Part shown: one piece after another, positions 9,942 through 49,920 of the stretch | Layout of the letters: each line of letters starts with the position of its first letter | How positions within the stretch are numbered: the first letter of the stretch is position 1 | Origin: a virus | Lineage: Duplodnaviria; Caudoviricetes | Virus record (IMG/VR): IMGVR_UViG_3300029288_000066 | Location: 128,001-192,000 of that record | Reading direction: 5' to 3' (one strand) | Length of the DNA stretch: 64,000 nucleotides | The notes under the pieces: generated by a model | What the model saw: the letters and a program-made list of their open reading frames with translations, nothing else | Databases searched by the model: none | What the model was told of the DNA's origin: nothing | Translations under genes and position numbers: made by a program

Positions 9942-10025
9942 TAGCTAAGAAAGGACTCGAACCTTCAAATTCTTACGAATCACGGTTTCTGAAACCGCTG
10001 CGTCAACCATTTGCGCCACTTAGCC
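9942..10025 (-). tRNA. tRNA-Leu(CAG)
   Basis: Cloverleaf, loop TTCAGAA, long variable arm. Confidence 0.9.
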
Positions 10026-10224
10026 ATTTATTATTCTATTCACAAAGTCAAAAAGTTCCATTCCTCTTATGAATTTATCTTTTGCTTCTTTATATGTCGG
10101 CGCATTAGTCACTGCTCCCCCACTCCATTGTACGATATTCCAACACCATCTTCATCTTGAACAATTAATACATCCCATTTTTCTATTTTCTCAACTCTAA
10201 TTTTCATAATTCAAAAATTATTTG

Positions 10225-10309
10225 TGACATCGGAGGAAGTCGAATCCTCATGAGTATTAACTCGATAGCCCCTCAAGCTATTGCGTATAACCAATTTCGC
10301 CACGATGCC
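10225..10309 (-). tRNA. tRNA-Leu(GAG)
   Basis: Loop TTGAGGG, long variable arm. Confidence 0.9.
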
Positions 10310-10315
10310 ATTTTG

Positions 10316-10397
10316 TACCCCAAGAAAGACTCGAACTTTCACACCTTTCAGTACCAGGTTTTGAATCTGGGTCGGCTACCATTTTCGACATTGGGGC
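10316..10397 (-). tRNA. tRNA-Leu(CAA)
   Basis: Loop TTCAAAA. Confidence 0.9.
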
Positions 10398-11267
10398 TTA
10401 TTTAAAAATTTTTTTTAATCTTATTAATTCTTTTATAACTTCTTCAGATTCTTTAGTTTTATGTTTGTTTTCAAATAATTCTATTTTTTTTAATAATTTT
10501 TTCAAACTTATTTGCGACTTTACACCCTTAGATTGATTTTTTATGTGTGGCACTAATCTACAATTCGCTGGATGTCTTATTATTATAGGATTTATTCCAA
10601 TTAAAAACCCATCTTTGACTGAAAAAACATGGTCTCTACTAACTCCTTTTAAATTATTCTTCTTATTTGTTGGACTATACCATCCGATTTCTTTAATAAG
10701 TTTTATATTAAATTCTTCTGGAAACATATTTAATGAAAATTTAAATTCACATTCTGCTCTGTAAAATTTATAATATTTTACCTTACATGATTCGCAAATT
10801 GTCTTAAACCCAAAAACTTCACCTCCTTTGCAAATTTTACAATATCTCATTTTTTTCTCCACGGGTTTCTTTTTATTTATTGCTTTTTTTATTTTTCTAC
10901 AATCCTCGCAAATTGCATTATTTAGAGAAGCTCTTTTGTTTATCAGAAGTTCTTTTTCACACTTCTTACAATAGGCCTTTTTTGTTTCTGAATAATTTAT
11001 TTTTCTCAGCTTATTGTTAAATGATGCTGAACAGGATTTAGAACAAAATATTTTATTTTCACTTTTCAAACTTTCAAAAATACTACCACAATTTTTACAA
11101 TTATTATGAACTTTACTTTCTTTTATTAAAGAAATTTTTAATCTGTGGAATTTTAACTGTACCGATTTTTTAGTTCTACCAATAGTTTTAGCTATTTCAT
11201 TACATGAAATATTGGATTTTGCCAACTCAACAATTTTATCTATTTCTTTTGTATCCCATTTTTTCAT
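10398..11267 (-). CDS. Zinc-finger HNH-type homing endonuclease inside tRNA operon
   Basis: Multiple CxxC/FCSKSC; RDH...HPANC...N. Confidence 0.7.
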   Translation of the reverse strand: MKKWDTKEIDKIVELAKSNISCNEIAKTIGRTKKSVQLKFHRLKISLIKESKVHNNCKNCGSIFESLKSENKIFCSKSCSASFNNKLRKINYSETKKAYCKKCEKELLINKRASLNNAICEDCRKIKKAINKKKPVEKKMRYCKICKGGEVFGFKTICESCKVKYYKFYRAECEFKFSLNMFPEEFNIKLIKEIGWYSPTNKKNNLKGVSRDHVFSVKDGFLIGINPIIIRHPANCRLVPHIKNQSKGVKSQISLKKLLKKIELFENKHKTKESEEVIKELIRLKKIFK

Positions 11268-11342
11268 ACTATTTTTATTTATAAATAGTATAAAAAAAGA
11301 GTATTACAACCTTTTCGAACCTAAATTTCAAAGAACTTTTTG

Positions 11343-11416
11343 TACTCTACCTCGGACTCGAACCGAGAAAATCATGAGCCTAAATCATGTGGATATACCA
11401 ATTCTCCTAGTAGAGT
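11343..11416 (-). tRNA. tRNA-Leu(TAG), short variable arm
   Basis: Loop TTTAGGC. Confidence 0.85.
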
Positions 11417-11421
11417 GTTTG

Positions 11422-11492
11422 AGGTCAGCAACGGAATCGAACCGTTCTATATGGGTTTGCAATCCACAACTTAACCAATCAGACAGCTGACC
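11422..11492 (-). tRNA. tRNA-Cys(GCA)
   Basis: Loop TTGCAAA, U73. Confidence 0.85.
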
Positions 11493-11501
11493 TTATTTTT
11501 G

Positions 11502-11590
11502 TACCCCAGGAGAGACTTGAACTCTCACGCTACTATTATTTCGCCTCGGATTTTAAGTCCGATATGTACTACCAATTTCATCACTGGGGC
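11502..11590 (-). tRNA. tRNA-Leu(TAA)
   Basis: Loop CTTAAAA, long variable arm. Confidence 0.9.
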
Positions 11591-11596
11591 ATAAAT

Positions 11597-11737
11597 AATC
11601 AAGGGAAAATTTGAAAAAGTGTAACCCTTTCGGGATGGCGGGATTTGAACCCGCAATGACCTTTCGGTCACCAGATTTTTAGTCTAGTGTCTGTACCAGT
11701 TCGACAACGAAGTAACTTTTTCGATTGCCACTTGATT
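11597..11737 (-). ncRNA. Scaffold RNA copy 1 (Y RNA-like stem, Leu-type tRNA-like insert)
   Basis: GTGGCAATCGAAAAAGTTACTTCG...ACTTTTTCAAATTTTCCC enclosing D-, anticodon, variable and T-arm elements. Confidence 0.7.
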
Positions 11738-11765
11738 TTATTTTCAATATTTTAAAGAACGATGT

Positions 11766-11806
11766 AAAAAGAAAAAGGGAGCTAGTTTTTCAACTGCTCC
11801 CTTTTT
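11766..11806 (-). terminator. Attenuator terminator of Leu/Cys tRNA operon
   Basis: AAAAAGGGAGC..GCTCCCTTTTTCTTTTT hairpin; 5' arm complementary to CAATTGCTCCC in leader. Confidence 0.85.
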
Positions 11807-11826
11807 AAGTTTGGTTTATCTCGCAT

Positions 11827-11907
11827 TTACGCAAAATCATACCACGTCAACTTGCTTTGGGAGCAATTGGCTAGTAAGAGGCATAAACACAAAGATATAG
11901 TTTTCAT
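11827..11907 (-). CDS. Leu/Cys attenuation leader peptide MKTISLCLCLLLANCSQSKLTWYDFA
   Basis: 26 aa ORF between promoter and terminator; LCLCLLL run matches downstream tRNAs. Confidence 0.85.
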   Translation of the reverse strand: MKTISLCLCLLLANCSQSKLTWYDFA

Positions 11908-11940
11908 AATATATTTCTTTCTATTAAATAGTTCAATTTT

Positions 11941-11992
11941 TTACTTTCTACGCAAAGATACAAAAAAAGTTACATTAAATGCAAGTTTTTTT
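11941..11992 (-). promoter_or_regulatory. Composite promoter of tRNA operon (TTGC...TATCTTTG plus GTAAC-N16-CGTA)
   Basis: Near-identical copies at ~27560-27610 and ~49835-49885. Confidence 0.75.
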
Positions 11993-11995: not shown

Positions 11996-12607
11996 TTATT
12001 TTTTAAATAGCTGATTTACAATCTCTTCTTTTATTATATTTTTAATGATTTTTCTAGCCTCTTCAGTATTTCCATTTTTTTCTACACTTATAATCTCTAC
12101 ATTTTCTGGATTATAAACTATACAGTGATAAACTTTATCAACATCATTGAACTCGAACCCTTTTTTATATAATAACATAGCATCATAGCCCAACTTGCTC
12201 ATTGCACGCATAAACGCCTGGGGTGCTCCGTTATATTGTTCTACCCTTAAAGAGTGCCACACCTCATCCTCTGTATCACTATATTTTATTGCTTCATTTA
12301 TAGCCATTAACTTATCTGTTTCTATATCAGAACTCCAATTATTCGCATAATCTTCATCACTTATCATATCAAGAAACTTCTTCAAATCTCTTCTGTTTGC
12401 TTTAGAAGCGGACTTCATATTTGTTATTACTTTTCTTGGAGCTAAATTCACAGTATATGTAAGTTTTCCCCACATTGCAGCATTTTCTTTAGAATTTGTA
12501 AAATATATTCCAGGACCTTCAGCGTCAGGGACTCCAATTTTCCCTGCAAACTCATCTGAGAACTTCTCTATTTTAGAATTTGAACCGTGATAAAAGACTC
12601 CATTCAT
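11996..12607 (-). CDS. ADP-ribosyltransferase-fold protein
   Basis: FYHGS...GPGIYFT...GYDA; C-terminal EARKIIKNIIKEEI. Confidence 0.6.
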   Translation of the reverse strand: MNGVFYHGSNSKIEKFSDEFAGKIGVPDAEGPGIYFTNSKENAAMWGKLTYTVNLAPRKVITNMKSASKANRRDLKKFLDMISDEDYANNWSSDIETDKLMAINEAIKYSDTEDEVWHSLRVEQYNGAPQAFMRAMSKLGYDAMLLYKKGFEFNDVDKVYHCIVYNPENVEIISVEKNGNTEEARKIIKNIIKEEIVNQLFKK

Positions 12608-22058: not shown

Positions 22059-22332
22059 CTCATTATACGAGAAAAAACAAATTATGTTACAACTAACGTT
22101 TTTTTGTTGGGAAATATTTTTCGTTGATTTTCTTCTGACATTCTTGCCAGGTTTCTCCTTCGAATTCTTCTACGAATTCATATCCAGCATTGTTTTCTTT
22201 GTCAAACTTACGTGTCTTGCTGTGTAAGAGAATTTGGCCGCTTTCTTTGTTTTTATACACCTGGACTATCATAAATATAAATAGTCTGGGAATGTGGAAA
22301 ATAATAAAAAAATGTGAAAATTTTGTGTAGTG

Positions 22333-22406
22333 TGGACCCAGGAGGAATTGAACCTCCGACCTTTTGATTATGAGTCAACTGCTCTGACCAACTGAGCTAT
22401 GGGTCC
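22333..22406 (-). tRNA. tRNA(CAT), probably Ile2 from operon context
   Basis: Loop CTCATAA; lies in Ile/Lys operon. Confidence 0.8.
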
Positions 22407-22412
22407 TTGGTG

Positions 22413-22486
22413 TTGTGAAGGTCGGGCTCGAACCGACATATCTCCTGCTTATAAGACAGGCGCCGTCACCATTTAGCTACTCCACA
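22413..22486 (-). tRNA. tRNA-Ile(TAT)
   Basis: Loop CTTATAA. Confidence 0.85.
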
Positions 22487-22558
22487 GTTTGTGTTTCCCC
22501 AATGGCCTCTGGCTGTGGGGAAACTAACGTATTCGTATATGAATTTGTATCCGCATCA

Positions 22559-22819
22559 TTAAAACATTATTCTATTTTCTTCAATTTGATAATCTTCAAT
22601 TCTTTTATACCATCCACCTAAAATATCGCATCCTTCTGGTATCTTACTTAACACCCTTCTTGCCATGGGAAGAGCATAATCCTCCTCAATTTTGTACTCT
22701 CGTTCACTTTCAAACAACTTAAAAAGGTTTGGATTGCTCGCCCCACTTAAGCCCTTTAGAAGTCCACTATTTTCCCATGACCTAACTATATTTTCTCTCC
22801 GCTCTTGCAAGTTTTCCAT
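22559..22819 (-). CDS. Protein resembling the N-terminal segment of T4-like gp23
   Basis: WENSGLLKGL...LFES...LPMARRVLSK. Confidence 0.55.
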   Translation of the reverse strand: MENLQERRENIVRSWENSGLLKGLSGASNPNLFKLFESEREYKIEEDYALPMARRVLSKIPEGCDILGGWYKRIEDYQIEENRIMF

Positions 22820-22869
22820 AATTTTTTAATTCAAATATATGAAATTATATTTCAAATCTCAAGTTTTTG

Positions 22870-22942
22870 TCGGAATGGAGGGAGTTGAACCCACGACCTT
22901 TTGAATATCAGTCAAATGCTCTACCAACTGAGCTACATTCCG
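22870..22942 (-). tRNA. tRNA-Ile(GAT)
   Basis: Loop CTGATAT. Confidence 0.9.
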
Positions 22943-22949
22943 TTATTTG

Positions 22950-23023
22950 TGGACAAGGTAGGATTTGAACCTACGACCCCGAAGTTATCAGCTTCGTCTT
23001 CTAACCAACTGAAATACATGTCC
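22950..23023 (-). tRNA. tRNA-Ile(GAT)
   Basis: Loop CTGATAA. Confidence 0.85.
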
Positions 23024-23024
23024 G

Positions 23025-23990
23025 TTATAATTGTTTTCCTTTTTCGTATTGCTCCAATTCTTTTTTCCCAAGCATTATGTGATAATATCCTTCTGATAAT
23101 ACAGCTTTTTTCTTTGCTTCTAATTTATCTCTATCACGTTTTTGAAACCATTCTCCCTTCATTTCTATAACTAAATTTCTCTCTGGTAAATAAAAGTCTG
23201 TAACATGAATACTCTTTTCTCCTTCAAATTCATATTCTATTCTTAACGTTTCGTAGAAATACATTTCTTTTCTTTCATCCAAAACATCCATCATTCTTAG
23301 TTCATAAGAACTTCTGTAATAAACCTCCTTCCCATACCAAGTCGTGTGATATCCAGTTTGATATTTAGTATTTACATTTGGAATTGCTCTACCTTCAACA
23401 AACGCCAGTCTTAAAGACTTAGATGTTGTTCTTAAATTAATACCGTTCTTTTTAAAGAAAAAATGTGTTGTATTATACATTATCCCATATTCATTTCTTA
23501 TTTGAATCAGTGCTTTTTTATTTGTAAAATACTCTTTTGAAAGGAGTATTAAAGCATTTTGATTTGACACCTGTAAGTTTTTTTGTAAAACTCCCAATTT
23601 GTTAAACAGATTTTTGTATTGTATGAAAGAACTACATAAATTACAATATTTTTTTTTGTTTTCATTAGAAATTTCCACCCCACAGCTTAAACATATTTTT
23701 TTATCTCCTTTTTTTTCACACAAAGGTCTCGCAGATTTTCTACGATTTCTTTCTTCATCAGAAATATTACAATTATATCTTCCATTGTTTTTACCAGAAG
23801 TTTTTAATATTCTTTCAGTAGACTGTTTTCTTCCTCTTAATTTTTCAGACGCTCTTTCATAGGATTCTTCAGTTCTAAATTTTGATGAGTATGTTCTAGC
23901 GCACTCTCTTGAACAGAATTCTCCTGTGGAATACTTACTGTATTTTATAGCTTCTTTTTTATTACAACTTTTACATTTCATAACAAACAA
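23025..23990 (-). CDS. PD-(D/E)xK (TnsA-like) homing-type endonuclease inside tRNA operon
   Basis: YRSSYE...TDFYL...IEMKG. Confidence 0.7.
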   Translation of the reverse strand: MFVMKCKSCNKKEAIKYSKYSTGEFCSRECARTYSSKFRTEESYERASEKLRGRKQSTERILKTSGKNNGRYNCNISDEERNRRKSARPLCEKKGDKKICLSCGVEISNENKKKYCNLCSSFIQYKNLFNKLGVLQKNLQVSNQNALILLSKEYFTNKKALIQIRNEYGIMYNTTHFFFKKNGINLRTTSKSLRLAFVEGRAIPNVNTKYQTGYHTTWYGKEVYYRSSYELRMMDVLDERKEMYFYETLRIEYEFEGEKSIHVTDFYLPERNLVIEMKGEWFQKRDRDKLEAKKKAVLSEGYYHIMLGKKELEQYEKGKQL

Positions 23991-24063
23991 ATTTACTATA
24001 AATATACAAAAAAATTCGAATATTCGATGCCAGATTAAAAATATTTCAAAGAACTTGTTTTTG

Positions 24064-24136
24064 TGACCCAGGCGGAGTATGATTCCGCAACCCCATCATT
24101 AAAAGTGATGTGCTCTACCAATTGAGCTACTGAGTC
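24064..24136 (-). tRNA. tRNA-Lys(TTT)
   Basis: Loop CTTTTAA. Confidence 0.85.
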
Positions 24137-24141
24137 TTTTG

Positions 24142-24214
24142 TGAACCAGGTGGGAGTCGAACCCACATCCTTCGATTTAAGAGACCGAAGCTCCACCAAT
24201 TAAGCTACTGGTTC
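24142..24214 (-). tRNA. tRNA-Lys(CTT)
   Basis: Loop CTCTTAA. Confidence 0.9.
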
Positions 24215-24218
24215 ATTG

Positions 24219-24291
24219 TACTGCTGGAGGGACTCGAACCCTCAACCCACGGAGCAAAAATCCGTTGCTCTACCAATTAAGCTACAACAGC
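24219..24291 (-). tRNA. tRNA-Lys(TTT), atypical loop TTTTTGC
   Basis: Cloverleaf with G37. Confidence 0.8.
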
Positions 24292-24301
24292 GAAATGTTT
24301 G

Positions 24302-24372
24302 TGCATTCAGTTGGAGTCGAACCAACCTCTGCGGGTTAAAAGCCCGTGGCGAAGCCGCTTTGCTATGAATGC
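24302..24372 (-). tRNA. tRNA-Lys(TTT)
   Basis: Loop CTTTTAA. Confidence 0.85.
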
Positions 24373-24474: not shown

Positions 24475-24514
24475 AAATAAAAACCCCCCAACTCATTTCT
24501 GCGCTGGGGGGTTT
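24475..24514 (-). terminator. Attenuator terminator of Ile/Lys tRNA operon
   Basis: AAACCCCCCAGC..GTTGGGGGGTTTTTATTT; 5' arm complementary to GCTGGGAG in leader. Confidence 0.85.
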
Positions 24515-24534: not shown

Positions 24535-24618
24535 TTATGCAAAAATCTCCCAGCCACTAAGTTTTTTAATCTTAATGCTAATAGATTTCTTTATAATTAC
24601 AGTTAACAACATATTCAT
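24535..24618 (-). CDS. Ile/Lys attenuation leader peptide MNMLLTVIIKKSISIKIKKLSGWEIFA
   Basis: 27 aa ORF; IIKKSISIKIKK matches downstream tRNAs. Confidence 0.85.
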   Translation of the reverse strand: MNMLLTVIIKKSISIKIKKLSGWEIFA

Positions 24619-25264: not shown

Positions 25265-25338
25265 AGCCAACTGGAGGGATTCCAACCCCCGTAATCCGCA
25301 TTACAGGTGCGGCGCATCGAGCACTCTGCCACAGTGGC
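25265..25338 (-). tRNA. tRNA-Thr(TGT)
   Basis: Loop CCTGTAA; variant T-loop TTGGAAT. Confidence 0.8.
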
Positions 25339-25345
25339 TTTTCAC

Positions 25346-25422
25346 TGGAGCCGTAGGAGGGATTCGAACCCCCGACATCCTCATTACAAGTGAGGCGCTC
25401 TGGCCAACTGAGCTACAACGGC
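25346..25422 (-). tRNA. tRNA-Thr(TGT)
   Basis: Loop CTTGTAA, encoded CCA. Confidence 0.92.
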
Positions 25423-25431
25423 ATTCTTTTG

Positions 25432-25503
25432 AGCCAATAGAGGGAATCGAACCCCCGAATTCCTCTTTACGAAAGAGGCGCAATACCACTATGCGATATT
25501 GGC
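25432..25503 (-). tRNA. tRNA-Thr(CGT)
   Basis: Loop TTCGTAA. Confidence 0.88.
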
Positions 25504-25512
25504 ATTCTTCAG

Positions 25513-25584
25513 AGCCGACGAAGAGAATTGAACTCTTGACCTCTTCCTTACCAAGGAAGCGCTCTACCTCTGGGCTACGTCGGC
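25513..25584 (-). tRNA. tRNA-Thr(GGT)
   Basis: Loop TTGGTAA. Confidence 0.88.
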
Positions 25585-25590
25585 AGGTTC

Positions 25591-25768
25591 TGTTTAACTG
25601 ATGGGATTCCAACCCACACGTCCTATAACCTGCATTTAATTACCGCACCGCAGCCGCCCTGTGCGAAAAAATTCGAGCCCCGTTAACTGACTAACCATTC
25701 CTCGAATGACGGGGCAAGCGTCGAGGTGTTTACGGTTTAGCGACTAGCAATTCCGCCACAGTTAAACA
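25591..25768 (-). ncRNA. tRNA-like RNA with ~100 nt structured insert at anticodon position
   Basis: Acceptor TTTAACTG/CAGTTAAA, D-arm GCGGAATTGCTAGTCGC and T-arm GTGGGTTGGAATCCCAT around a GC-rich insert. Confidence 0.65.
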
Positions 25769-25770
25769 TT

Positions 25771-25846
25771 GGGTGAAAGGTCGGCTTCGAACCGACAACC
25801 CTCTGAACCACAATCAGATACTCTAACCAATTGAGCTACAATCACC
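25771..25846 (-). tRNA. tRNA-His(GTG)
   Basis: Loop TTGTGGT, G-1/C73. Confidence 0.9.
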
Positions 25847-25850
25847 ATAT

Positions 25851-25983
25851 AAAAAAGGGGAAAAGTTAGAACAGGGTTTTTCATGTAAAATCCTGGAGTT
25901 TAACCAGTACCCATTGAATTAAAAGTCAATTGCTCAACACTGAGCTAATTTTACGAAGTAGCTGTTCAGATTGCCACCTTTTT
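25851..25983 (-). ncRNA. Scaffold RNA copy 2 (Lys-type tRNA-like insert)
   Basis: GTGGCAATCTGAACAGCTACTTCG...CTGTTCTAACTTTTCCCC enclosing cloverleaf with CTTTTAA loop. Confidence 0.7.
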
Positions 25984-26016
25984 ATGTTTTCAATATTTTA
26001 AAGAACTTATTCTTAG

Positions 26017-26091
26017 GGTGTCGAACCAGATTCGAACTGGCGTTGACTAAGGTCACAGCTTAGCCGTAGAAACCAACACTACACCGACACA
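26017..26091 (-). tRNA. tRNA-His(GTG)
   Basis: Loop CTGTGAC. Confidence 0.8.
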
Positions 26092-26093
26092 GA

Positions 26094-26177
26094 AGGGGAG
26101 GAGGGATTCGAACCCCCGTAAACCCGAAGGCACTAACGTTAACAGCGTTCCGCTCTGACCAACTGAGCTACACCCCC
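26094..26177 (-). tRNA. tRNA-Asn(GTT), long variable arm
   Basis: Loop CTGTTAA. Confidence 0.8.
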
Positions 26178-26189
26178 ATGTAATTTTTT

Positions 26190-27035
26190 TTATTTTTTAT
26201 AATCTTTTAGCCATTTTCTAATTGCATTGTCAGAAACACCATATTTTTTGCCAACCGCACAATAATTTGTTTTTTTAATTTCTTGCATCAACTGTTCATA
26301 AGACGGCCTTTCAACCCTTCTTCTACTTTTTTTATAACAATCTATACATTCTTTTGCTTTTACATCCTTCTCTTTCCCACATTTGCAAACTCTTGTTTTT
26401 TCACTTTTCCTTTTAATGTTTCTAAAACAATATGTGTTTAACGTAGAATCACAATTTGGACATATGATTCTTAGATTTTTTAATCTATTATCCATATGAT
26501 TTCCATTAATATGGTCAAGAATTAAAATTAATTTATTTCCATTCCAATTTACATCCTGTCCACACAACTCACAACATTCTTTTTTTAAACCTTCATCATA
26601 CAATCTTTTTTTAAAATTAGAAGGTAAGCTTTTTCCAACTACAAAATAATATTCAATTGGGTTCTTTTTGCAACCAGTAATTACACCTTGTTCTTTTAAT
26701 CGCTTATACAGCTCTTTTTTTCCAGTAAAATGTGAAATGTCTACATTATATCGAGCAATATAGTTTTTTATTGTTGTAAAACTTGCAGATGCTGGATTAA
26801 TATTAAGATTTCTTAAAGCATCAGAATAAGAATATGCATTTTTAACAGCTTCTAGTATTTCTTTTTCTGAATATTTCCAAATTCCATACTTTGCAACTTT
26901 TAAACCAAGACGCTTTGCTTTATGAGCTACGGAATGTTTACTCTTGCCTAACTTTCGAGAACAATATATAGCACCATGCTCTTCATAATTGTTCTTAAGA
27001 AATAAAATTTCATTTTCTACCCATTTATATTTCAT
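26190..27035 (-). CDS. HNH homing endonuclease with C-terminal HTH
   Basis: LDHINGNHMDNRLKNLRIICPNC; GKKYGVSDNAIRKW. Confidence 0.85.
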   Translation of the reverse strand: MKYKWVENEILFLKNNYEEHGAIYCSRKLGKSKHSVAHKAKRLGLKVAKYGIWKYSEKEILEAVKNAYSYSDALRNLNINPASASFTTIKNYIARYNVDISHFTGKKELYKRLKEQGVITGCKKNPIEYYFVVGKSLPSNFKKRLYDEGLKKECCELCGQDVNWNGNKLILILDHINGNHMDNRLKNLRIICPNCDSTLNTYCFRNIKRKSEKTRVCKCGKEKDVKAKECIDCYKKSRRRVERPSYEQLMQEIKKTNYCAVGKKYGVSDNAIRKWLKDYKK

Positions 27036-27101
27036 ATTGACATCTTTATTATAAATATGCCAAAAAATTATTTTTTCAATATTTCAAAGAACTTAATTTT
27101 G

Positions 27102-27188
27102 CGTTTCCTGTAAGATTCGAACTCACGATGGGGATTACTCCTCGTCAGGTTAACAGCCTGATGCCGTCGGCCACTTGGCTAAAGAAAC
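27102..27188 (-). tRNA. tRNA-Asn(GTT), long variable arm
   Basis: Loop CTGTTAA. Confidence 0.8.
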
Positions 27189-27191: not shown

Positions 27192-27349
27192 AATTCGGGG
27201 AAAAGGAGCAAAAGTGTTTTTTCTATACTCTAACCAACTGAGCTACGTGCTCCATTTTTTTTATTATTTGGGAGCACGACTGGACTCGAACCAGCGACCT
27301 TTTGTTATCAAGACAAATGCGAAGTAACTTTTACAATTGCCACCGAATT
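27192..27349 (-). ncRNA. Scaffold RNA copy 3 (circularly permuted Ile-like tRNA)
   Basis: T-arm and CGTGCTCC come before GGAGCACG and D-arm GCTCAGTTGGTTAGAGT inside conserved stem. Confidence 0.75.
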
Positions 27350-27374
27350 ATTTCAAAATTTTAAAGAACGATAT

Positions 27375-40324: not shown

Positions 40325-41082
40325 ACCTTGAGTTTACAGGCTTTAGTGAGCCAACTTTCGGAGGATTATTGTTTCCCCGCCTTATCCACATGCCTTGCGA
40401 CACGTACCGACTCAATCTCGACTGCTATGGGCAATCACTCCTATCGTCACAGACTACTCTACTGCTACTTTAACCACAACAAGGGCGCCCCCCTGCAATA
40501 GCCTTTCACAATAATCCGTTGAACTTTGACATCCAACGTCCCCAATTCATCTTGCGATGTCAGGGTCTGAGAGACCTGTCGTCCATAACGCCAGCGGAAC
40601 TTTTTCTTTGCTTCTATTGTTTTTAGAGAATAGAGCGGTTTTTACCCCGCACCAAAGTATGTGTTTAATTAAGGATGTGCCGCTGGAACAGCTTCGCCAC
40701 TTTTGGCGACGAAATACTATACACCTTCTGCGCCCTTTTGCATCAGTACGCTTTCATCTCCGAATCCTTCCTCCATCGCTGGAAGCGAGAATCCCAAAAA
40801 CAAATGGAACACGCTCTATAGTCTGCTAAACGTTGAACATTATTCCTCGGTTTTTCCTGTTACCCCTTTCGGAGCTCAATCGCCTTAACACAATTTAGAC
40901 GATATTCCACTCAGCAGTTGCCCTTGCAGAACGTACTAACCTATTGTATGCTCGACTTCCTTGTGAAAGCGGCGAGTTATAAACCCCACCTTTAATCCTG
41001 GTCACCCAGTTTATTTTGCCTGCCCCTTTCGGAACAGACCTTGACAACCCGTAGGCCACCAGTGACAGCACACTGCCACAAA
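40325..41082 (-). ncRNA. Large structured ncRNA, GOLLD-like
   Basis: ~760 nt GC-elevated segment with no credible ORF, between TATCTTTG promoter/boxA and terminator 40290-40316. Confidence 0.55.
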
Positions 41083-41199
41083 TATTTTCAATATTTTAAA
41101 GAACTTTAAATCTTGGTTACTCACCTATAATGAGCAAAGATATATAATCTAAAAACAAAAAGCAACTTTTTTCTTGTTTTTTTTTATTTTTTTTTAAAA

Positions 41200-41282
41200 A
41201 GACGTAAACAGGCCGCTCAACCACCTACCCTTGCTTTCTTCCGAACCTGGGGGAGTTCAGTAGGAGCTGGCCTATTACGCTT
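41200..41282 (-). ncRNA. ffs: SRP (4.5S) RNA
   Basis: Helix-8 signature CAGGTTCGGAAGAAAGCA in long hairpin. Confidence 0.8.
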
Positions 41283-41567
41283 TTTAAGTTACATAGATAC
41301 AGCTGAACCATTTTTCAGAGTCAATTTAAATGCGAAGGGCTTCCACTCTTGCGAGTCATACACAGCCTCACTTTCCTCACATACTGCATCAGGCGACTGA
41401 ACCTGACCTTTTTTAATAACTTAAATTTTCAATATCTTAAAGAACTTTTGCCAATGTAAATATACAAAAAAAATTCCATTTACATAGGCTCATACGAAAA
41501 AAAATAAAAAAAGTTACGAGAATCAAATAATTTTTTCTATATTTATAAAAAAATTAGGTTCTCTATA

Positions 41568-43854: not shown

Positions 43855-44709
43855 ATGAATAAATGTTTAAATTGCGGACAGGAAACAAATAACAATAAGT
43901 TTTGTTCTATTAGTTGCCAACATAGATTCCAAAAAGCATCACAAATTGATAAAAGACTTGGTATGTTTTTAGACTTTACAATTAAATGCAATAAGTGTGG
44001 AAAGGAGTTTGTAGTTAATGAACGTGAAAATTTATTTCCACAAAAAGAAAAATATTATTGTAGTAGAAGTTGTGCAAATAAAAGAATTCATAGTGAAGAA
44101 ACTAAGAAAAAGATAAGCAAAAGAATTAAAGAGCTTATAAAAGAAAATCCAGAAAAATATAGCAATGGTGGTTATAATAGCGGTTCTGAATTACAAAAAA
44201 AAAGAGAAAAAATTGTAAAAATAATTTGTAAAAAATGTTTAAAAGAATTTTGTGTGCCTTATGGTAGAAGAAATAGGCAATTTTGTTGTAAAACGTGTGC
44301 ATCTAATTGGATGAAAGGTTCTTCTAAATCTCAATTAACTGGACTGTTATCAGTACAAGCACAAAAGGATATGAGAAGAAGTAAAAATGAGATATATTTT
44401 TCTGAATTATGTAAAAATCACTTCAATAAGGTTTTAACCAACGAACCAATATTTAATGGTTGGGATGCAGATGTTATTATTGAAGACATTAAAATGGCAG
44501 TTTTGTGGAATGGTAAGTGGCATTATGAAAAGATAACTAAAAAACACTCTGTCAAACAAGTTCAAAATAGAGATAAAATAAGAATTAAAGAAATTAAAGA
44601 ATATGGATATAATTACTACATCATTAAAGATATGGGAAGACAAAATAAAAAATTTGTTGAGGATAAATTTAACACATTTATAAAAATGTTGGGAACAAAA
44701 AATTCTTAG
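43855..44709 (+). CDS. Zinc-finger PD-(D/E)xK/Vsr-like endonuclease
   Basis: FCSxSC fingers; WDAD...WNGKWH...D. Confidence 0.7.
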   Translation: MNKCLNCGQETNNNKFCSISCQHRFQKASQIDKRLGMFLDFTIKCNKCGKEFVVNERENLFPQKEKYYCSRSCANKRIHSEETKKKISKRIKELIKENPEKYSNGGYNSGSELQKKREKIVKIICKKCLKEFCVPYGRRNRQFCCKTCASNWMKGSSKSQLTGLLSVQAQKDMRRSKNEIYFSELCKNHFNKVLTNEPIFNGWDADVIIEDIKMAVLWNGKWHYEKITKKHSVKQVQNRDKIRIKEIKEYGYNYYIIKDMGRQNKKFVEDKFNTFIKMLGTKNS

Positions 44710-44783
44710 TGGCGATGACGAGATTTGAACTCGTAACCTTCTCTTTATGAGAGAGATGTGCATACCAATTACACCGCATCGCT
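44710..44783 (-). tRNA. tRNA-Met(CAT)
   Basis: Loop CTCATAA. Confidence 0.85.
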
Positions 44784-44795
44784 GTTTAAAAAAAT

Positions 44796-45003
44796 AGTGG
44801 TGCGTGAAAGCCTCCTACTTTCATAATCTCGCTGACTTACACAGCTAGAAGGTCTCGGAATCGCACAACGAAAGTAGTTGTAGTCGAACAAATTTCACTT
44901 CTTCTGAAATGATATTCATTCTTTCGATTGTGTCAACAATCCAACTGCTCCGTTGATTCACTACTGAACCTTTAATTACAGCGGTCTTAAGCACCGCACC
45001 ACT
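44796..45003 (-). ncRNA. Unidentified ~205 nt structured RNA
   Basis: Terminal stem AGTGGTGCG/CGCACCACT inside tRNA operon. Confidence 0.5.
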
Positions 45004-45087
45004 TGCCTACAAACAACTCATGCATTAGCTGTTCATGTGCCAGGGAAACACTCGCCCTTTTGCAAATAGAGTCTGTGATTCCTTTTG

Positions 45088-45159
45088 AGCGAAAGATGGG
45101 GTTCGAACCCACGGCCTGAACCTTGGCAAGGTCCCACTCTACCACTGAGCTACTTTCGC
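45088..45159 (-). tRNA. tRNA-Gly(GCC)
   Basis: Loop TTGCCAA. Confidence 0.9.
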
Positions 45160-45162
45160 ATT

Positions 45163-45327
45163 AAAATTAGGGAATTCTCGAACTAAGCTTTTTCTTTTCC
45201 GCCCCATTTAGCCACTCTGGTACTCCTCGATTTTAATTTTCTTTGTCGAGGAGGATGGATTCGAACCACCGTAGGCTTACGCCAGCAGATTCCTTTCGAA
45301 GTATCTTAATTTGTTACCACTAATTTT
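45163..45327 (-). ncRNA. Scaffold RNA copy 5 (circularly permuted Tyr-like tRNA)
   Basis: Variable and T-arm plus CTCCTCG precede CGAGGAG and D-arm; opened at anticodon loop. Confidence 0.75.
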
Positions 45328-45330
45328 TTG

Positions 45331-45404
45331 TGGAGATGACTGGATTCCAACCAGCGACTTCTTGATTGCAGGTCAAGCGCTCTAAGCAGCTGAGCTACAT
45401 CCCC
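45331..45404 (-). tRNA. tRNA-Ala(TGC)
   Basis: Loop CCTGCAA, G3:U70. Confidence 0.85.
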
Positions 45405-45487
45405 CATTGTTTTCCTATTAACTCTTCCTGCACTAAGGTGCGCAGGTTAACAGAACTTCGGAAAAGCTTCTATACTTGTTCAGTTAG

Positions 45488-45564
45488 TCGGGCATGCAAG
45501 ATTCGAACTTGCGAGTTCTCCACATCCCAAATGTGGCGGGGTGGCCTGACTCCCCAAATGCCCG
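45488..45564 (-). tRNA. tRNA-Pro(TGG)
   Basis: Loop TTTGGGA. Confidence 0.88.
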
Positions 45565-45633
45565 AATTTACAACCTTTGTTTGCAGAATAGTTTTTGAAT
45601 TTTAATTTTTTAAACTATTTATAATAAAATACG

Positions 45634-46335
45634 ATGAAACCTTTATTTACAGAAGAAGAGTTCAACAATGCAAAAAGCGAAGATAAACTTCCTTGCGAAT
45701 GCTATTATTGTAAAAAACAATTTTTTCCCTATAAAAAAGCAATTAAACATGAATTAAAAAGTAATAGTGGGTGGATAAAGTTTTGTTCAATTGCATGTCA
45801 TAATAGATATAAGTTCGGAGAATCTGTTTTAACAAAATGCTCTAATTGTAATAAACATATATATAAAGACCCTTCACAAATAAAAAAATCTAAAACTGGA
45901 AATATCTTTTGCTCAAAGTCTTGCGCTGCCACATATAATAACAAGCATAAAATTCATGGCACTCGTAGGTCAAAGCTTGAAATTTATTTAGAAAAACAAT
46001 TAACGCTTTTATACCCAAGTTTAGAGATTCTTTATAACAACAAAGAAACAATAAACTCTGAACTTGATATTTATATTCCTTCTTTTAAACTTGCTTTTGA
46101 ACTTAATGGAATCTTTCATTACGAACCAATATTTGGTGATGAAAAACTAGGTAAAATCCAAAACAATGATGAGCGCAAATTTCAAGCTTGTTTAGAAAAC
46201 CAAATTGAACTCGTTTTAATTGATGTTTCTTCTTTAGGATATTTTAAGCCTAAAAATGCTGATAAATACCTTAATATTATTATCAACATTATAAATAAAA
46301 AATTAGGGAATTCTTTGCAGAATCTTTTTTTATAG
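45634..46335 (+). CDS. Zinc-finger PD-(D/E)xK/Vsr-like endonuclease, antisense within tRNA operon
   Basis: ELDIYIP...FELNGIFH...D. Confidence 0.7.
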   Translation: MKPLFTEEEFNNAKSEDKLPCECYYCKKQFFPYKKAIKHELKSNSGWIKFCSIACHNRYKFGESVLTKCSNCNKHIYKDPSQIKKSKTGNIFCSKSCAATYNNKHKIHGTRRSKLEIYLEKQLTLLYPSLEILYNNKETINSELDIYIPSFKLAFELNGIFHYEPIFGDEKLGKIQNNDERKFQACLENQIELVLIDVSSLGYFKPKNADKYLNIIINIINKKLGNSLQNLFL

Positions 46336-46457
46336 CGTTCTAGCCATTAAACTATCCCCACAATTTTACTTTATTCTCTTTTGTGTAGGGAGCGAGATTC
46401 GAACTCACATTTCTGTCTTGGAAGGACGATGAAATTCTACGATTTGCCACTAATTTT
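46299..46457 (-). ncRNA. Scaffold RNA copy 6 (circularly permuted Gly-like tRNA)
   Basis: GTGGCAAATCGTAGAATTTCATCG...ATTCTGCAAAGAATTCCC; CTTCCAA loop and T-arm, then D-arm. Confidence 0.7.
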
Positions 46458-46458
46458 G

Positions 46459-46534
46459 TCGGAGTAACTGGATTCGAACCAGCGGAAATCTTGCACCCCA
46501 TGCAAGCCCATATAGCCATCTGTGGAACACCCCG
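46459..46534 (-). tRNA. tRNA-Pro(GGG)
   Basis: Loop ATGGGGT. Confidence 0.85.
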
Positions 46535-46668
46535 ATAAAATGACCAACGTCAAGATTTTTGAGTTGCTAATGCTTTTGCTACATCACCGTTAATGCTGCT
46601 TTGTCGACTCATCGGCAATAAGGCCGCTATTCACATTAATTCTTCCTCTCATATTAATCAGTCATTTG

Positions 46669-46743
46669 TCTAGGTGGCAAGATTCGAACTTGCGGACCGA
46701 TGTTTCCAAAACACCGTAGTATAGCCATCTGCAATACACCTAG
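46669..46743 (-). tRNA. tRNA-Pro(TGG)
   Basis: Loop TTTGGAA. Confidence 0.82.
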
Positions 46744-46760
46744 TTTTTTATTTTTCACTG

Positions 46761-46846
46761 TTGCGGGTGAGGGACTCGAACCCCCGCTTTCCTTTTGGGA
46801 AAGTCCAGCTTATGAGACTGGCGAGATGCCGCTTCTCTAACCCGCA
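46761..46846 (-). tRNA. tRNA-Met(CAT), long variable arm, fMet-like
   Basis: Loop CTCATAA; TTTCCCAAAAGGAAA variable hairpin. Confidence 0.8.
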
Positions 46847-46852
46847 TTTCAG

Positions 46853-46924
46853 TGGGAATAGCAGGATTCGAACCTACAATTCACAGATTTACAGTCTGCT
46901 AAGCAACCGCTGCTCAATACTCCC
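46853..46924 (-). tRNA. tRNA-Tyr(GTA), short variable arm
   Basis: Loop CTGTAAA. Confidence 0.85.
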
Positions 46925-47040
46925 AATTTCTCCAGCTCAAGGGTCAGTCTATCCCTTTTCTTTTTAACGCTATATTAAGGAGACTTCTATGTGTTCAACA
47001 ACGCTCTCATATGCAGCTAGAGGAAGATTTTCAAAATTTG

Positions 47041-47122
47041 TCGGAAGGGTAGGAGTTGAACCTACATAGCCAGAGGCGACTGTTTTACAGACAGCTGATT
47101 TAGCCGATTTACCATCCTGCCG
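47041..47122 (-). tRNA. tRNA-Tyr(GTA)
   Basis: Loop CTGTAAA, long variable arm. Confidence 0.85.
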
Positions 47123-47126
47123 AATT

Positions 47127-47277
47127 AAATCAGGGAAAGGGCGGAAGAGTTTTTTTTAAATTCCCCCTTGTTAAATTTGTTTTTCTTAATTGGCGGGGGA
47201 AGTTGGATTTGAACCAACATTGTTTGTTTTTCACACAAATGTTTACCGAAGTATCTCTTTCTATTGCCACTGATTTG
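47127..47277 (-). ncRNA. Scaffold RNA copy 7 (permuted Phe-like tRNA with internal CCA)
   Basis: GTGGCAATAGAAAGAGATACTTCG...CTCTTCCGCCCTTTCCC; TTCCCCC-GCCA precedes GGGGGAA. Confidence 0.7.
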
Positions 47278-47352
47278 TGGAGCTTAACGTATTCGAAACG
47301 TTCTGCTTTTCTCATTGCAAATGAGATGACCACCCTAGCAGTCCCAAGCCCC
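47278..47352 (-). tRNA. tRNA-Ala(TGC)
   Basis: Loop TTTGCAA, G3:U70. Confidence 0.82.
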
Positions 47353-47362
47353 ATAGTTGGGA

Positions 47363-47889
47363 TTATAATAATCCCAGGTTTTTTAATCTTTCGATTTCAA
47401 TTTCATTTCTTTTTATTTTTTTTCTTAACAGAGTGTTATCGAAATCCAGTAGAAATGATTCTGGAATTTTGATATTTTTTTCTTTGAATTGGTTCAGCAC
47501 TTCATCTTTTGTAAAGCTACATTCTACAATTCCGTCTGTCCATTGGTCTAGCCACAGACCCCAACTTTTTTTCCCTATTACAACACCCTTTAAAATATTA
47601 GGATGACAGCTTTTTAGGTTATGAATTTTGATTTCGCCATTTTCGAATTTTCTATAACAAAATTTTCCTTCATCTGAATTTAAATCGAATTCCACTTTCA
47701 CATCTGAGCCGCAGAATGTAAGAATTCCGCTTCTGTATGATGTTAAAAAGAAGGTGAAGATTTCATTAAATTTTTCAGAATATCTTTGAAGTTTTCTATG
47801 AATTCTACTTCCAGATTTCTCTTTTGTTTTTTCAATTCTTTTTAATCTTTCTTGGATTAAGTCGCTTTTCGCATGGTTGTTCCCTCCAT
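47363..47889 (-). CDS. Hypothetical protein (start codon off-frame by one base)
   Basis: Frame open to 47890; ATG at 47889 out of frame. Confidence 0.5.
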
Positions 47890-47906
47890 ATTAATTGTTT
47901 AAAAAT

Positions 47907-47981
47907 AAAATCAGGGAAAAATTTACTGAGAGAGTTTTTTGATTGGAAGTCGAAGTATCTCTACTGATTGCCACTGATTTT
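47907..47981 (-). ncRNA. Scaffold RNA copy 8 (minimal; only a GA-CTTCCAA-TC anticodon-like loop)
   Basis: GTGGCAATCAGTAGAGATACTTCG...CTCTCTCAGTAAATTTTTCCC. Confidence 0.7.
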
Positions 47982-47984
47982 TTG

Positions 47985-48055
47985 AGCGAAATGTGGGAAT
48001 TAAACCCCTTCTACTAGTTGGAGGCCAGCCGCTTTATCGTTAAGCTACATCTCGC
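47985..48055 (-). tRNA. tRNA-Gly(TCC), degenerate T-arm
   Basis: Loop CCTCCAA. Confidence 0.7.
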
Positions 48056-48182
48056 ATTGTAGTGGTTTTGTATTAACCTGTGACCACCAAACACCGCCAA
48101 CATACGATTTGGAATGAGTGTGCAGCGGCTCTGAACCCGCTCTACGCCTTACATCATCTTCGTTCCCTTGTACTTCGGGCTT

Positions 48183-48258
48183 TGGAGCAGAAGACGGGGC
48201 TCGAACCCGCCACCTGGAGATTGGAAATCTCCCGCTCTACCAAATGAGCTACTTCTGC
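48183..48258 (-). tRNA. tRNA-Gly(TCC)
   Basis: Loop TTTCCAA, encoded CCA. Confidence 0.92.
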
Positions 48259-48351
48259 ATTGGTGCCAGACATTTTGAACTTTTTCATTCACGGGCACTT
48301 TCGGGAAAACCCTATACATAACGCCCTGACAGCTATCTCGCCTCCGCTTTT

Positions 48352-49212
48352 TTAATTTAATTTCTTTTCGTAATATTTAATCCATTTTCTTACTGCATTA
48401 TCAGAAACTCCATATTTTCTTCCGACTGCACTATAATTAGATTTTTTTAATTCTTCAACAAGTTCTATATAAGAAGGTCTCTGTGTTTTTCTTTGCCTAA
48501 TTTCATCACACGATTTACATCTTTTCATACCTTTACCTATTTCATTTCCACATGCACAATAATTTTTATTTTTTTCTTTAATTTCTTTTATTTTATCAAA
48601 ATATTGCTTTCCTATATTCTTTCCTCCATTAGTATTAAATGTAGCCGCACAATTTGGACAAACTATTCTTAAATTTTCCAATCTATTATCATTATGATGC
48701 CCATTTTTATGGTCAAGAATCAAACTAATTTTTTCCCCATTCCAAACTTCTCCTTGTCCACATTTCTCGCATATTTTTTGTTTAAGTTCTTCTTTATATA
48801 ATCTTTCTTTTAAATTTGTCGTATGATTATATGTTGAATTTTCAACTAATATGTCGGACAAATCAAATTTTCCAGAAACAAATCTATTACCTGAAATGCC
48901 AAAATTAAAATGTGAAATGTCAATGTTGTATTTCTCTATATATTTTTTAATAGTATTTCTGTTACCACAATGAGTTGTAATTCCCAATCTCCTAGCTACA
49001 TCAGTATAGCTTTTAGACTCACCCACAACTTTTTTAAATTTTATTTCATTGTATTTTTCATTCCTACATTCAAGATTAAGAGCAAAATGTTGTGCTTTAC
49101 CTCTAATAGATGTTTTTGTCCTTTTTAATTCATTTGCACAAAATTCACATCCGTAGATTGGATAATTCTTTTTCAAGAATTCCACGTCTTTTTCTGTCCA
49201 TTCTTTTTTCAT
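48352..49212 (-). CDS. HNH homing endonuclease (paralog of 26190..27035)
   Basis: LDHKNGHHNDNRLENLRIVCPNC; GRKYGVSDNAVRKW. Confidence 0.85.
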   Translation of the reverse strand: MKKEWTEKDVEFLKKNYPIYGCEFCANELKRTKTSIRGKAQHFALNLECRNEKYNEIKFKKVVGESKSYTDVARRLGITTHCGNRNTIKKYIEKYNIDISHFNFGISGNRFVSGKFDLSDILVENSTYNHTTNLKERLYKEELKQKICEKCGQGEVWNGEKISLILDHKNGHHNDNRLENLRIVCPNCAATFNTNGGKNIGKQYFDKIKEIKEKNKNYCACGNEIGKGMKRCKSCDEIRQRKTQRPSYIELVEELKKSNYSAVGRKYGVSDNAVRKWIKYYEKKLN

Positions 49213-49293
49213 GGTTTTTGTTTTTTCTTATAAATAGTTCAAAAAAACAAAAACTATAAATTTAACTATATAATTATCAACACACAAAAAAAG

Positions 49294-49364
49294 CGGAATG
49301 CGTGGGAATCGAACCCCTCCCTCAGCGTGACAAGCTGATATACAACCATTATACTGCGCACTCC
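49294..49364 (-). tRNA. tRNA-Asp(GTC)
   Basis: Loop TTGTCAC. Confidence 0.82.
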
Positions 49365-49479
49365 ATTTTGTATATCTACACTATTAAAATTACATTAATA
49401 GCGTAGATATACTTTTTGAAATCTTTTTTTATTCCCAACATGTCAAAGAACTTTCCAATAGAATAAATCTATAGAAGAG

Positions 49480-49568
49480 CGGGGATTATGGGATTCGAAC
49501 CCATGTAAAACCTTTTAAGGGTCTCAGGCGTGACAGGCCAGCATCAACTCCAGACTTGACCAAACCCC
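49480..49568 (-). tRNA. tRNA-Asp(GTC), long variable arm
   Basis: Loop CTGTCAC. Confidence 0.8.
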
Positions 49569-49594
49569 CGTATTTTTATTTTAAAGAACGATAT

Positions 49595-49630
49595 AAAAAA
49601 AGAAACCCGAATCTTTTTGGGATTCGGGTC
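49595..49630 (-). terminator. Attenuator terminator of Met/Gly/Ala/Pro/Tyr/Asp tRNA operon
   Basis: ACCCGAATC..GATTCGGGTTTCTTTTTTT; competes with CGGGTATGTTTA in leader. Confidence 0.85.
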
Positions 49631-49661
49631 TGTTTATTCCTTTTATAAGTTTACAACTTCA

Positions 49662-49772
49662 TTAAGGTTTAGTATTAAACATACCCGTCCCACATCCATA
49701 ATCGGCATCAATCGCTGATGGATAGCCGCCCATCGGAGTTACTTCTAAACGATATGTAAAATTCTGTTTCAC
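49662..49772 (-). CDS. Attenuation leader peptide MKQNFTYRLEVTPMGGYPSAIDADYGCGTGMFNTKP (GTG start)
   Basis: PMGGYPSAIDADYG contains all six amino acids of the downstream tRNAs. Confidence 0.87.
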   Translation of the reverse strand: MKQNFTYRLEVTPMGGYPSAIDADYGCGTGMFNTKP

Positions 49773-49832
49773 CTTTAATTAATTTTTATACTGTTGTTAC
49801 TATTAAATATCTCAAAAAAATGTTTTTCATTT

Positions 49833-49920
49833 CTCTTCTACGGCAAAGGTACAAAAAAAGTTACATCAAATGCAAGTTTTTTTTCGTTTATTTTTAAAAT
49901 AATTTTTAATTGATTGATTT
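49833..49920 (-). promoter_or_regulatory. Composite tRNA-operon promoter (repeat)
   Basis: TTGCATTTGATGTAACTTTTTTTGTACCTTTG. Confidence 0.75.

Follow-up and report, generated by a model that had tools for sequence, protein, structure and literature searches.

The 64,000 nucleotides analyzed here (the window, bases 128001-192000 of the linear IMG/VR virus record IMGVR_UViG_3300029288_000066) carry four blocks of tRNA genes, each preceded by a short leader open reading frame (ORF) and an intrinsic terminator. Each of these units is probably a ribosome-mediated leader-peptide transcription attenuator with the block of tRNA genes as its output. This reading had been proposed in an initial annotation, and at the sequence level the leader ORF, the control codons, the terminator and a mutually exclusive antiterminator are all present and statistically specific. 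The complete record comprises 228,886 bp and is estimated to be 82% complete. In the window the G+C content is about 32% and nearly all genes lie on the minus strand; the 35 tRNAs determined by ARAGORN are located there without exception. With Rfam and relaxed ARAGORN settings, another Thr(tgt) and a number of tRNA-like elements were added. Two further arrays, each again with the order leader ORF, terminator and tRNAs, were observed in the whole record. Positions refer to the window unless designated as genome positions, and all features of the units lie on the minus strand unless stated otherwise.

Leader codons and tRNA arrays

Leader ORFs of 23-36 codons were found at all six arrays, 45-220 nt downstream of the promoter. 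When every codon of each leader ORF was counted, i.e. without any picking of patches, the six leaders comprised 71 codons for their own arrays compared to a mean of 26.8 over all pairings, and the true pairing was the best of 720. When set against the 958 small ORFs of this genome that start with ATG, every leader showed a p of 0.002-0.019 for its own codon set, and the Fisher combined value was 1e-8. The claim that the leader patches are composed of the amino acids of their own arrays is borne out by these values. The match also extends to the anticodons. A cognate codon in the own leader was determined for 33 of the 35 distinct anticodons, with an exact Watson-Crick codon for 25, while mismatched leaders represented 14.8 anticodons (maximum 22) and random small ORFs 17.3 +/- 3.1.

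The match might be a by-product of composition or chance, arising from small ORFs in AT-rich intergenic DNA that are rich in a few amino acids by accident. In favour of this, some of the leaders did not stand out singly from the genome in a scan with a fixed 12-codon window, leaders 1 and 4 lying outside the top windows for their codon sets, and the strength of the codon match rests on position and pairing. Chance would, however, have to account for the best of 720 pairings, for the combined p of 1e-8 and for a shuffle test in independent genomes, described below, in which 0 of 100,000 shuffles were as good. It would also have to account for the matching leaders at the two arrays outside the window, which were found as predicted. 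The probability of this explanation is considered to be negligible.

Leader 1 (11827-11907; 26 aa) comprises at codons 6-12 the patch LCLCLLL, encoded by TTG TGT TTA TGC CTC TTA CTA. These codons sample Leu(caa), Cys(gca), Leu(taa), Leu(gag) and Leu(tag), the Leu isoacceptors being addressed by TTG, TTA, CTC and CTA. The corresponding array 1 (9941-11590) consists of Leu(taa), Cys(gca), Leu(tag), an ORF (10398-11267), Leu(caa), Leu(gag) and Leu(cag). Leader 2 (24535-24618; 27 aa) contains the patch VIIKKSISIKIKK with the codons ATT, ATA, AAG and AAA, read by Ile(gat), Ile(tat), Lys(ctt) and Lys(ttt). Array 2 (22332-24372) comprises four Lys tRNAs, an ORF (23025-23990), two Ile(gat), one Ile(tat) and one tRNA with the anticodon CAT. 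Since the anticodon arm of the latter resembles that of Ile(gat), it is probably Ile2.

In the patch of leader 3 (27432-27521; 29 aa; HINTKTNKHNNT), His is encoded by CAT, Asn by AAC and AAT, and Thr by ACG, ACC and ACA, which covers all three Thr isoacceptors. Array 3 (25266-27188) begins with Asn, an ORF (26190-27035), Asn and His, followed by a Y-RNA-like element (25852-25983), a second His, Thr(ggt), Thr(cgt) and two Thr(tgt). Ile and Lys codons are interspersed in leader 3 and match array 2, which is located downstream on the same strand. Leader 4 (49662-49772) comprises 36 aa when started at GTG 49772 or 23 aa when started at ATG 49733; its patch PMGGYPSAIDADYGCGTGM contains codons for Pro, Met, Gly, Tyr, Ala and Asp. 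Array 4 (44709-49569) consists of two Asp, Gly(tcc), Ala, two Tyr, a CAT tRNA, three Pro, Ala, Gly(gcc) and a further CAT tRNA. It contains two inserted ORFs, of which one is HNH/HTH-like (HTH, helix-turn-helix; 48352-49212) and the other is encoded on the plus strand (45634-46335). A CAT-anticodon tRNA with a long variable arm (87 nt; 46760-46846, minus strand) adjoins the Tyr tRNAs of this array.

Outside the window, leader 5 (genome 118139-118044) with the patch QRFFQVVFFVQQ precedes an array of four Gln, three Phe, Arg(acg) and three Val. Leader 6 (genome 194158-194072) with the patch SWSSRRRSSSR precedes Ser(tga), Ser(gct), Ser(gga), two Arg(tct), three Trp and Arg(cct). The Arg codons are CGC in leader 5 and AGG or AGA in leader 6, in each case matching the anticodons of the own array, and the AGY codons of leader 6 are explained by the Ser(gct) gene, which was detected with relaxed settings. 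Altogether, 19 amino acids are partitioned among the six blocks. From the window alone, leaders for the remaining amino acids had been predicted to exist elsewhere; they were found for Arg, Gln, Phe, Ser, Trp and Val. The 82%-complete record contains no tRNA-Glu. Two more small ORFs are located between the promoter and leader 6 (genome 194372-194160, minus strand). The second of them (36 aa) shows an ATGA overlap with the start of leader 6, which suggests translational coupling.

The grouping of the tRNAs given in the initial annotation was confirmed, with the CAT tRNAs of arrays 2 and 4 and the endonuclease-like ORFs inside the arrays as additions. The order of leader, terminator and tRNAs likewise holds, except that in two arrays the first gene behind the gate is a Y-RNA-like element instead of a tRNA. 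Four ORFs of 281-321 aa split the arrays (10398-11267, 23025-23990, 26190-27035 and 48352-49212, all on the minus strand). Since three of the four show weak matches to HNH, endonuclease I or HTH domains, they are probably homing endonucleases. No Pfam match was obtained for the ORF in array 1 (10398-11267).

Terminators, antiterminators and promoters

All leaders are followed by a G+C-rich hairpin of -14.6 to -27 kcal/mol with a T-tract, located 19-28 nt past the leader stop codon. In the window these intrinsic terminators lie at 11766-11806 (unit 1; -19 kcal/mol, with T-tract), 24479-24514 (unit 2; -23 kcal/mol), 27375-27412 (unit 3) and 49591-49633 (unit 4). Each leader of the window contains a late segment of 10-15 nt, here called region 2, which is complementary to the 5' arm of its own hairpin, with duplexes of -13 to -19 kcal/mol and a shuffle p of at most 0.03 for each leader. 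Region 2 of unit 1 (11858-11870) pairs with the terminator 5' arm over 11 bp (-19.3 kcal/mol), and that of unit 3 (27453-27463) over 9 bp (-15.8 kcal/mol). The antiterminator strand of unit 2 is located at 24548-24557 (-13.5 kcal/mol), while region 2 of unit 4 (49678-49692) forms a bulged duplex (-14.8 kcal/mol). Over the six units, the own pairs sum up to -90.3 kcal/mol compared to a mean of -46.7 kcal/mol for mismatched pairs. The best derangement reached -63.2 kcal/mol, and none of the 265 was as good as the own pairing. The complementarity between the terminator and the late leader segment, which had been noticed before, is therefore specific for each unit. A genome-wide scan for a small ORF with terminator and antiterminator before protein genes yielded only a false positive, located inside a 293-aa ORF.

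When the leaders were folded without a ribosome, five of six folded on themselves and the terminator formed. A ribosome in the early or middle part of the patch was modelled by masking, using the RNA before the terminator 3' arm is made. In this case the minimum-energy fold comprised region 2 paired to the terminator 5' arm over 8-11 bp. The spacing is uniform, with the patch followed after 1-7 nt by region 2, after a further 10-28 nt by the stop codon and after 19-28 nt by the terminator arm. Unit 4 is an exception, as its region 2 shares 13 nt with the end of the patch. A ribosome standing at the stop codon could cover region 2 in five of six units, where the distance between the two is 0-18 nt. 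Based on these distances, the register of ribosome and antiterminator appears plausible.

A promoter core of 29 nt is identical or near-identical at three sites of the window and at two more in the genome. In unit 1 (11953-11987) it comprises TTG at -33 and TAtcTTTG at -7; the core of unit 3 (27571-27605) is the same, and that of unit 4 (49844-49878) differs from unit 1 by one substitution. We assign this core to the Bacteroidota consensus, TTG/TAnnTTTG. The phage proteins also contain CHU_C and Por_Secre_tail domains, which are involved in type IX secretion sorting. Because of these proteins and the TTG ... TAnnTTTG form of the promoters, the sequence points to a Bacteroidota-type host. The proposal that all four arrays share the order promoter, leader, terminator and tRNAs was thus correct for leader and terminator at every array, and an identical promoter is missing at array 2. 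Block 2 follows block 3 immediately on the downstream side and may act as a further gate in series with it. The presence in leader 3 of scattered Ile and Lys codons, which match block 2, is in line with such an arrangement.

The motif GTTCTTT(A/G)AAAT, often followed by ATTGAAA, is located after five of six terminators. In unit 1 it is present as ATCGTTCTTTAAAAT just past the terminator (11749-11763), and in units 3 and 4 it follows the terminator at 27358-27372 and at 49578-49592, in the latter case 9 nt before tRNA-Asp. Further sites on the minus strand are 41434-41445, 41093-41107, 27081-27092, 25995-26006, 24043-24054 and 11325-11336, and the motif is found again behind tRNAs that are followed by homing-endonuclease-like ORFs, as well as before RNAs of the signal recognition particle (SRP)-like and GOLLD types. 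In the form GTTCTTTRAAAT it resembles the boxA of E. coli, TGCTCTTTAACAA. As an extended 19-mer it is present in many Bacteroidota genomes; among the 80 matches listed, four precede a 16S start by 41-113 nt and 13 precede a tRNA by at most 300 nt. It is probably a boxA-type processive antitermination element, which would modify only those polymerases that have passed the attenuator.

The conserved motif could also be read differently. The small ORF and the hairpin would then be a self-contained peptide gene with an ordinary terminator, the tRNAs would be transcribed from their own downstream start, and GTTCTTTAAAAT would be a promoter or a processing site. The presence of the motif after five terminators as well as inside the arrays and before other non-coding RNAs would fit to this. 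Nonetheless, in Bacteroidota genomes the motif is found in rRNA leaders and between tRNAs, which is boxA-like rather than promoter-like. Moreover, a self-contained gene leaves both the match of codons and tRNAs in 16 units from five phages and the complementarity of the late ORF to its own terminator 5' arm unexplained. We consider this alternative to be very unlikely.

Corresponding units in other phages

Nothing else in IMG/VR matched the exact promoter core, and the database therefore offers no close relatives. Comparisons were made with 80 loci obtained via an RtcB alignment and with three large contigs, of which the tRNA regions were used. A blind rule was applied, which required a terminator at most 400 nt from a tRNA and then took the longest ATG ORF whose end lay no more than 60 nt ahead of this terminator. 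With this rule, ten codon-matched units were found in four other phages (G003, L044, L093 and L097). Among them, the patch RQTQPQQPRQPR stands before an array for Pro, Gln and Arg, SLSLQCQLLSSSLLSWCLLS before Trp, Leu, Gln, Cys and Ser, KQVKQIRKQQ before Gln, Lys and Arg, TFTMNTNTVNPNNP before Asn, Pro, Thr, Met and Val, and CNNNMFSSFCFNS before Phe, Ser and Cys. The amino-acid partition varies between the phages, while the leaders each track their own array.

The initial annotation had named shuffled pairings in related phages as a check. In the ten units the match to the own array was 4.86 compared to 2.09 +/- 0.44 after shuffling, and none of 100,000 shuffles was as good. The antiterminators summed up to -125.6 compared to -80.1 +/- 8.5, with 0 of 18,586 being as good. 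Region 2 ends at most 4 nt from the stop codon, and 25-30 nt separate the stop from the stem; judged by these distances, the geometry is that of a textbook attenuator. Two "gates" which the rule produced inside the arrays of G000 were rejected as ORFs read across tRNA genes, but were retained in the shuffle test as noise.

The codon families of Arg and Ser follow the anticodons. Arrays with CGN-reading Arg tRNAs have leaders with CGN codons only, and those with AGR-reading tRNAs have leaders with AGR codons only (5/0 vs 0/6, p = 0.002). For Ser, arrays with Ser(gct) are preceded by AGY leaders and TCN-reading arrays by TCN leaders (13/3 vs 2/10, p = 0.002). This shows that selection acts on the codons of the leader rather than on the peptide.

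The terminator-plus-ORF rule gave no gates in G004 and G006, and the fragments covered of G002 and G007 contain no tRNAs. In G001 (L031, G001:C1:14000-24000; locus 5860-6560, minus strand), an array for Pro, Ala, Thr, Gly, Val and Arg lies behind an ORF of about 220 aa, which is not a leader and by eye looks like a class II aminoacyl-tRNA synthetase. A single-protein search with a neighbouring ATPase gave no relatives, a 1005-aa ORF matched nothing in a database of cultured phages, the DNA of array 5 gave only short tRNA matches in the same database, and a ClpB-like protein gave uninformative host-like matches there.

Proposed regulation and relation to known systems

As predicted from sequence, host RNA polymerase would start at the Bacteroidota-type promoter and the short leader would be translated by a ribosome. 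With fast decoding of the whole patch, the ribosome would reach the stop codon and cover or disrupt region 2; the terminator would then form and the polymerase would stop short of the tRNAs. With slow decoding of any one patch codon, due to a scarcity of its charged tRNA, the ribosome would stall upstream of region 2, which could then pair with the terminator 5' arm and allow read-through of the polymerase. The boxA-like element would probably render this polymerase termination-resistant, and the whole array would be transcribed, in two units beginning with a Y-RNA-like gene. Because nearly every isoacceptor of a block is represented by one or more codons in the patch before it, a unit would behave as an OR-gate. 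The shortage of any one tRNA would switch the block on and the new tRNAs would switch it off again, with negative feedback on the tRNA supply as the net effect.

Several observations are less easily reconciled with this mechanism. Leader 4 could start either at GTG 49772 or at ATG 49733, and some patches contain non-cognate codons, namely Ser in leader 2 and Ser, Ile, Cys and Thr in leader 4. For unit 4, the minimum-energy fold of the naked leader is the antiterminated form. In unit 1, a gap of 28 nt between region 2 and the stop codon puts region 2 beyond direct cover by a terminating ribosome, and a competing local hairpin is needed as an added assumption. Since stalls at the last codons of the patch, 1-7 nt from region 2, would mask the antiterminator, only roughly the first two thirds of the patch could signal. 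Unit 2 lacks the shared promoter and shows only a weak candidate -7 box. No such leader was found at the tRNA arrays of the RtcB-encoding phages G001, G004, G006, L043 and L071. Since the arrays of several RtcB-encoding phages lack the leader, the leader-gate design is common but not universal. Finally, amino-acid starvation would give the same signal, as it is charged tRNA that is sensed, and extra tRNA would then be of no benefit.

The last point leads to the nature of the signal. Leader-peptide attenuators such as those of trp and his respond to charged tRNA and do not distinguish missing from uncharged tRNA. The same attenuators could therefore report amino-acid starvation or general translation capacity, for example as a timer of host shut-off, with the blocks acting as late or stress genes. 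The mixture of several amino acids in the patches would be compatible with such a role. However, the choice of codons tracks isoacceptors and codon families, as seen for the three Thr and five Leu codons and for Arg and Ser, and in all genomes covered the partition of the tRNA genes corresponds to the leaders. A sensor of amino acids or of global capacity needs neither isoacceptor sampling nor a matched partition. Starvation or translation capacity as the signal is thus regarded as unlikely.

In a wider reading, which we regard as almost as likely as not, the units could be an instance of a widespread and undescribed phage circuit, a tRNA-supply homeostat. The amino-acid-sorted blocks would then act as OR-gates for the loss of isoacceptors and release tRNAs together with Y-RNA/Ro60-RtcB repair functions. 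Such a loss could originate from host anticodon nucleases, from tRNA-targeting toxins or from the breakdown of host tRNA once the host is shut off. The RtcB, Ro60 and Y-RNA-like genes hint only indirectly at such nucleases or toxins as the trigger, which remains speculative. The phage encodes an RtcB RNA ligase (genome 124736-126166), an ATP-dependent DNA ligase and a TROVE-domain Ro60 (genome 213494-215089).

Three Y-RNA-like elements are located in the arrays, two of them as the first gene behind an attenuator. The tRNA-like or Y-RNA-like element behind gate 1 (11597-11737) has a long closing stem, and its core matches the Rfam tRNA model with 30.5 bits at model positions 7-64 only. The second (27193-27348) is a YrlA-like Y RNA with a long closing stem and a permuted core of T arm, closed acceptor hairpin and D arm. 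Its core matches the Rfam YrlA model with E = 3.4e-5 and 30.8 bits, below the gathering score of 69. The third (25852-25983, inside array 3) shows a tRNA-like core with an 8-nt anticodon loop. All three start with GGTGGCAAT and end with TTTTCC, and their long two-part closing stems covary among the copies. In this respect the phage resembles the known Ro60/YrlA/RtcB repair modules, since it combines a TROVE Ro60 and RtcB with three tRNA-like RNAs bearing long covarying stems. In contrast to these modules, its Y-like RNAs lie inside attenuator-gated arrays and not beside rsr, and the Rfam score remains below the gathering threshold.

The closest parallels are the enterobacterial attenuators. 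The leaders of ilvGMEDA (Ile/Leu/Val), thr (Thr/Ile), trpL, hisL, leuL and pheL likewise combine a short leader with a run of control codons and an intrinsic terminator. They use a mutually exclusive antiterminator that involves the terminator 5' arm, with the position of the ribosome being decisive, and several amino acids can be sensed by one leader. Unlike the classical cases, which are followed by genes for amino-acid biosynthesis or transport, the phage units are followed by tRNAs, Y-RNA-like RNAs and endonuclease ORFs. Their output would consist of tRNA (and Y-RNA-like) genes instead of biosynthetic enzymes, so that the product feeds back on the sensor. Furthermore, the phage patches sample isoacceptors and up to six amino acids, and the units are phage-borne, with six copies that partition 19 amino acids and are followed by a boxA-like element. 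The proposed mechanism is classical; what is new is that tRNA is the output, that the feedback loop is closed, that isoacceptors are sampled and that the partition spans the genome. A full-text literature search, with subscription journals outside its coverage, gave no description of attenuator control of tRNA genes, in agreement with the initial annotation, where none was known for phage tRNA arrays.

T-box riboswitches, which control synthetase and amino-acid genes in Firmicutes, also choose between terminator and antiterminator via a specific codon-matched tRNA. There, uncharged tRNA is bound directly by the Stem I specifier codon and the T-box sequence and no ribosome is involved, whereas the phage leaders comprise an ORF with start, stop and many codons. 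No T-box was matched by Rfam in the window at gathering thresholds. Similar to the boxA of rrn operons, which is bound by NusB/NusE, GTTCTTTRAAAT heads long untranslated RNA operons. It differs in its position after an attenuator terminator and in its recurrence after tRNAs that precede homing-endonuclease ORFs.

Large phages carry many tRNA genes, and why they do so and when these genes are expressed are two standing questions. If the proposed regulation holds true, the phage would gauge the speed of decoding codon by codon and top up only those tRNAs that run short. This would link tRNA arrays directly to host tRNA-targeting defences and to mismatches in codon usage, and the amino-acid sorting of phage tRNA genes would be a consequence of the regulatory partition. 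Leader-peptide attenuation would be extended to RNA products, to closed-loop control of translation and to Bacteroidota-type hosts. With their compact, modular layout of about 250 nt, the units could act as sensors of the availability of specific tRNAs.

Besides the tRNA arrays, further RNA and protein genes were observed. A candidate permuted tmRNA with a 26-residue tag was called by ARAGORN outside the window (genome 84078-84424, plus strand), where an amber-suppressor-type tRNA with the anticodon cta (genome 196604-196678, minus strand) is also present. A recoding of TAG, as suggested by the latter, was rejected, since opening TAG increased the ORF coverage no more than opening TGA. Immediately upstream of the promoter of unit 1, an ART-PolyVal ADP-ribosyltransferase-like protein is encoded (11996-12607, minus strand), and an HD-domain protein occupies the corresponding position at unit 4 (49943-50398, minus strand). 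Between tRNA blocks 3 and 4, a GOLLD RNA (40325-40729, minus strand; 185.9 bits) and a bacterial small SRP-like RNA (41196-41283, minus strand; 47.2 bits at a gathering score of 40) are located.

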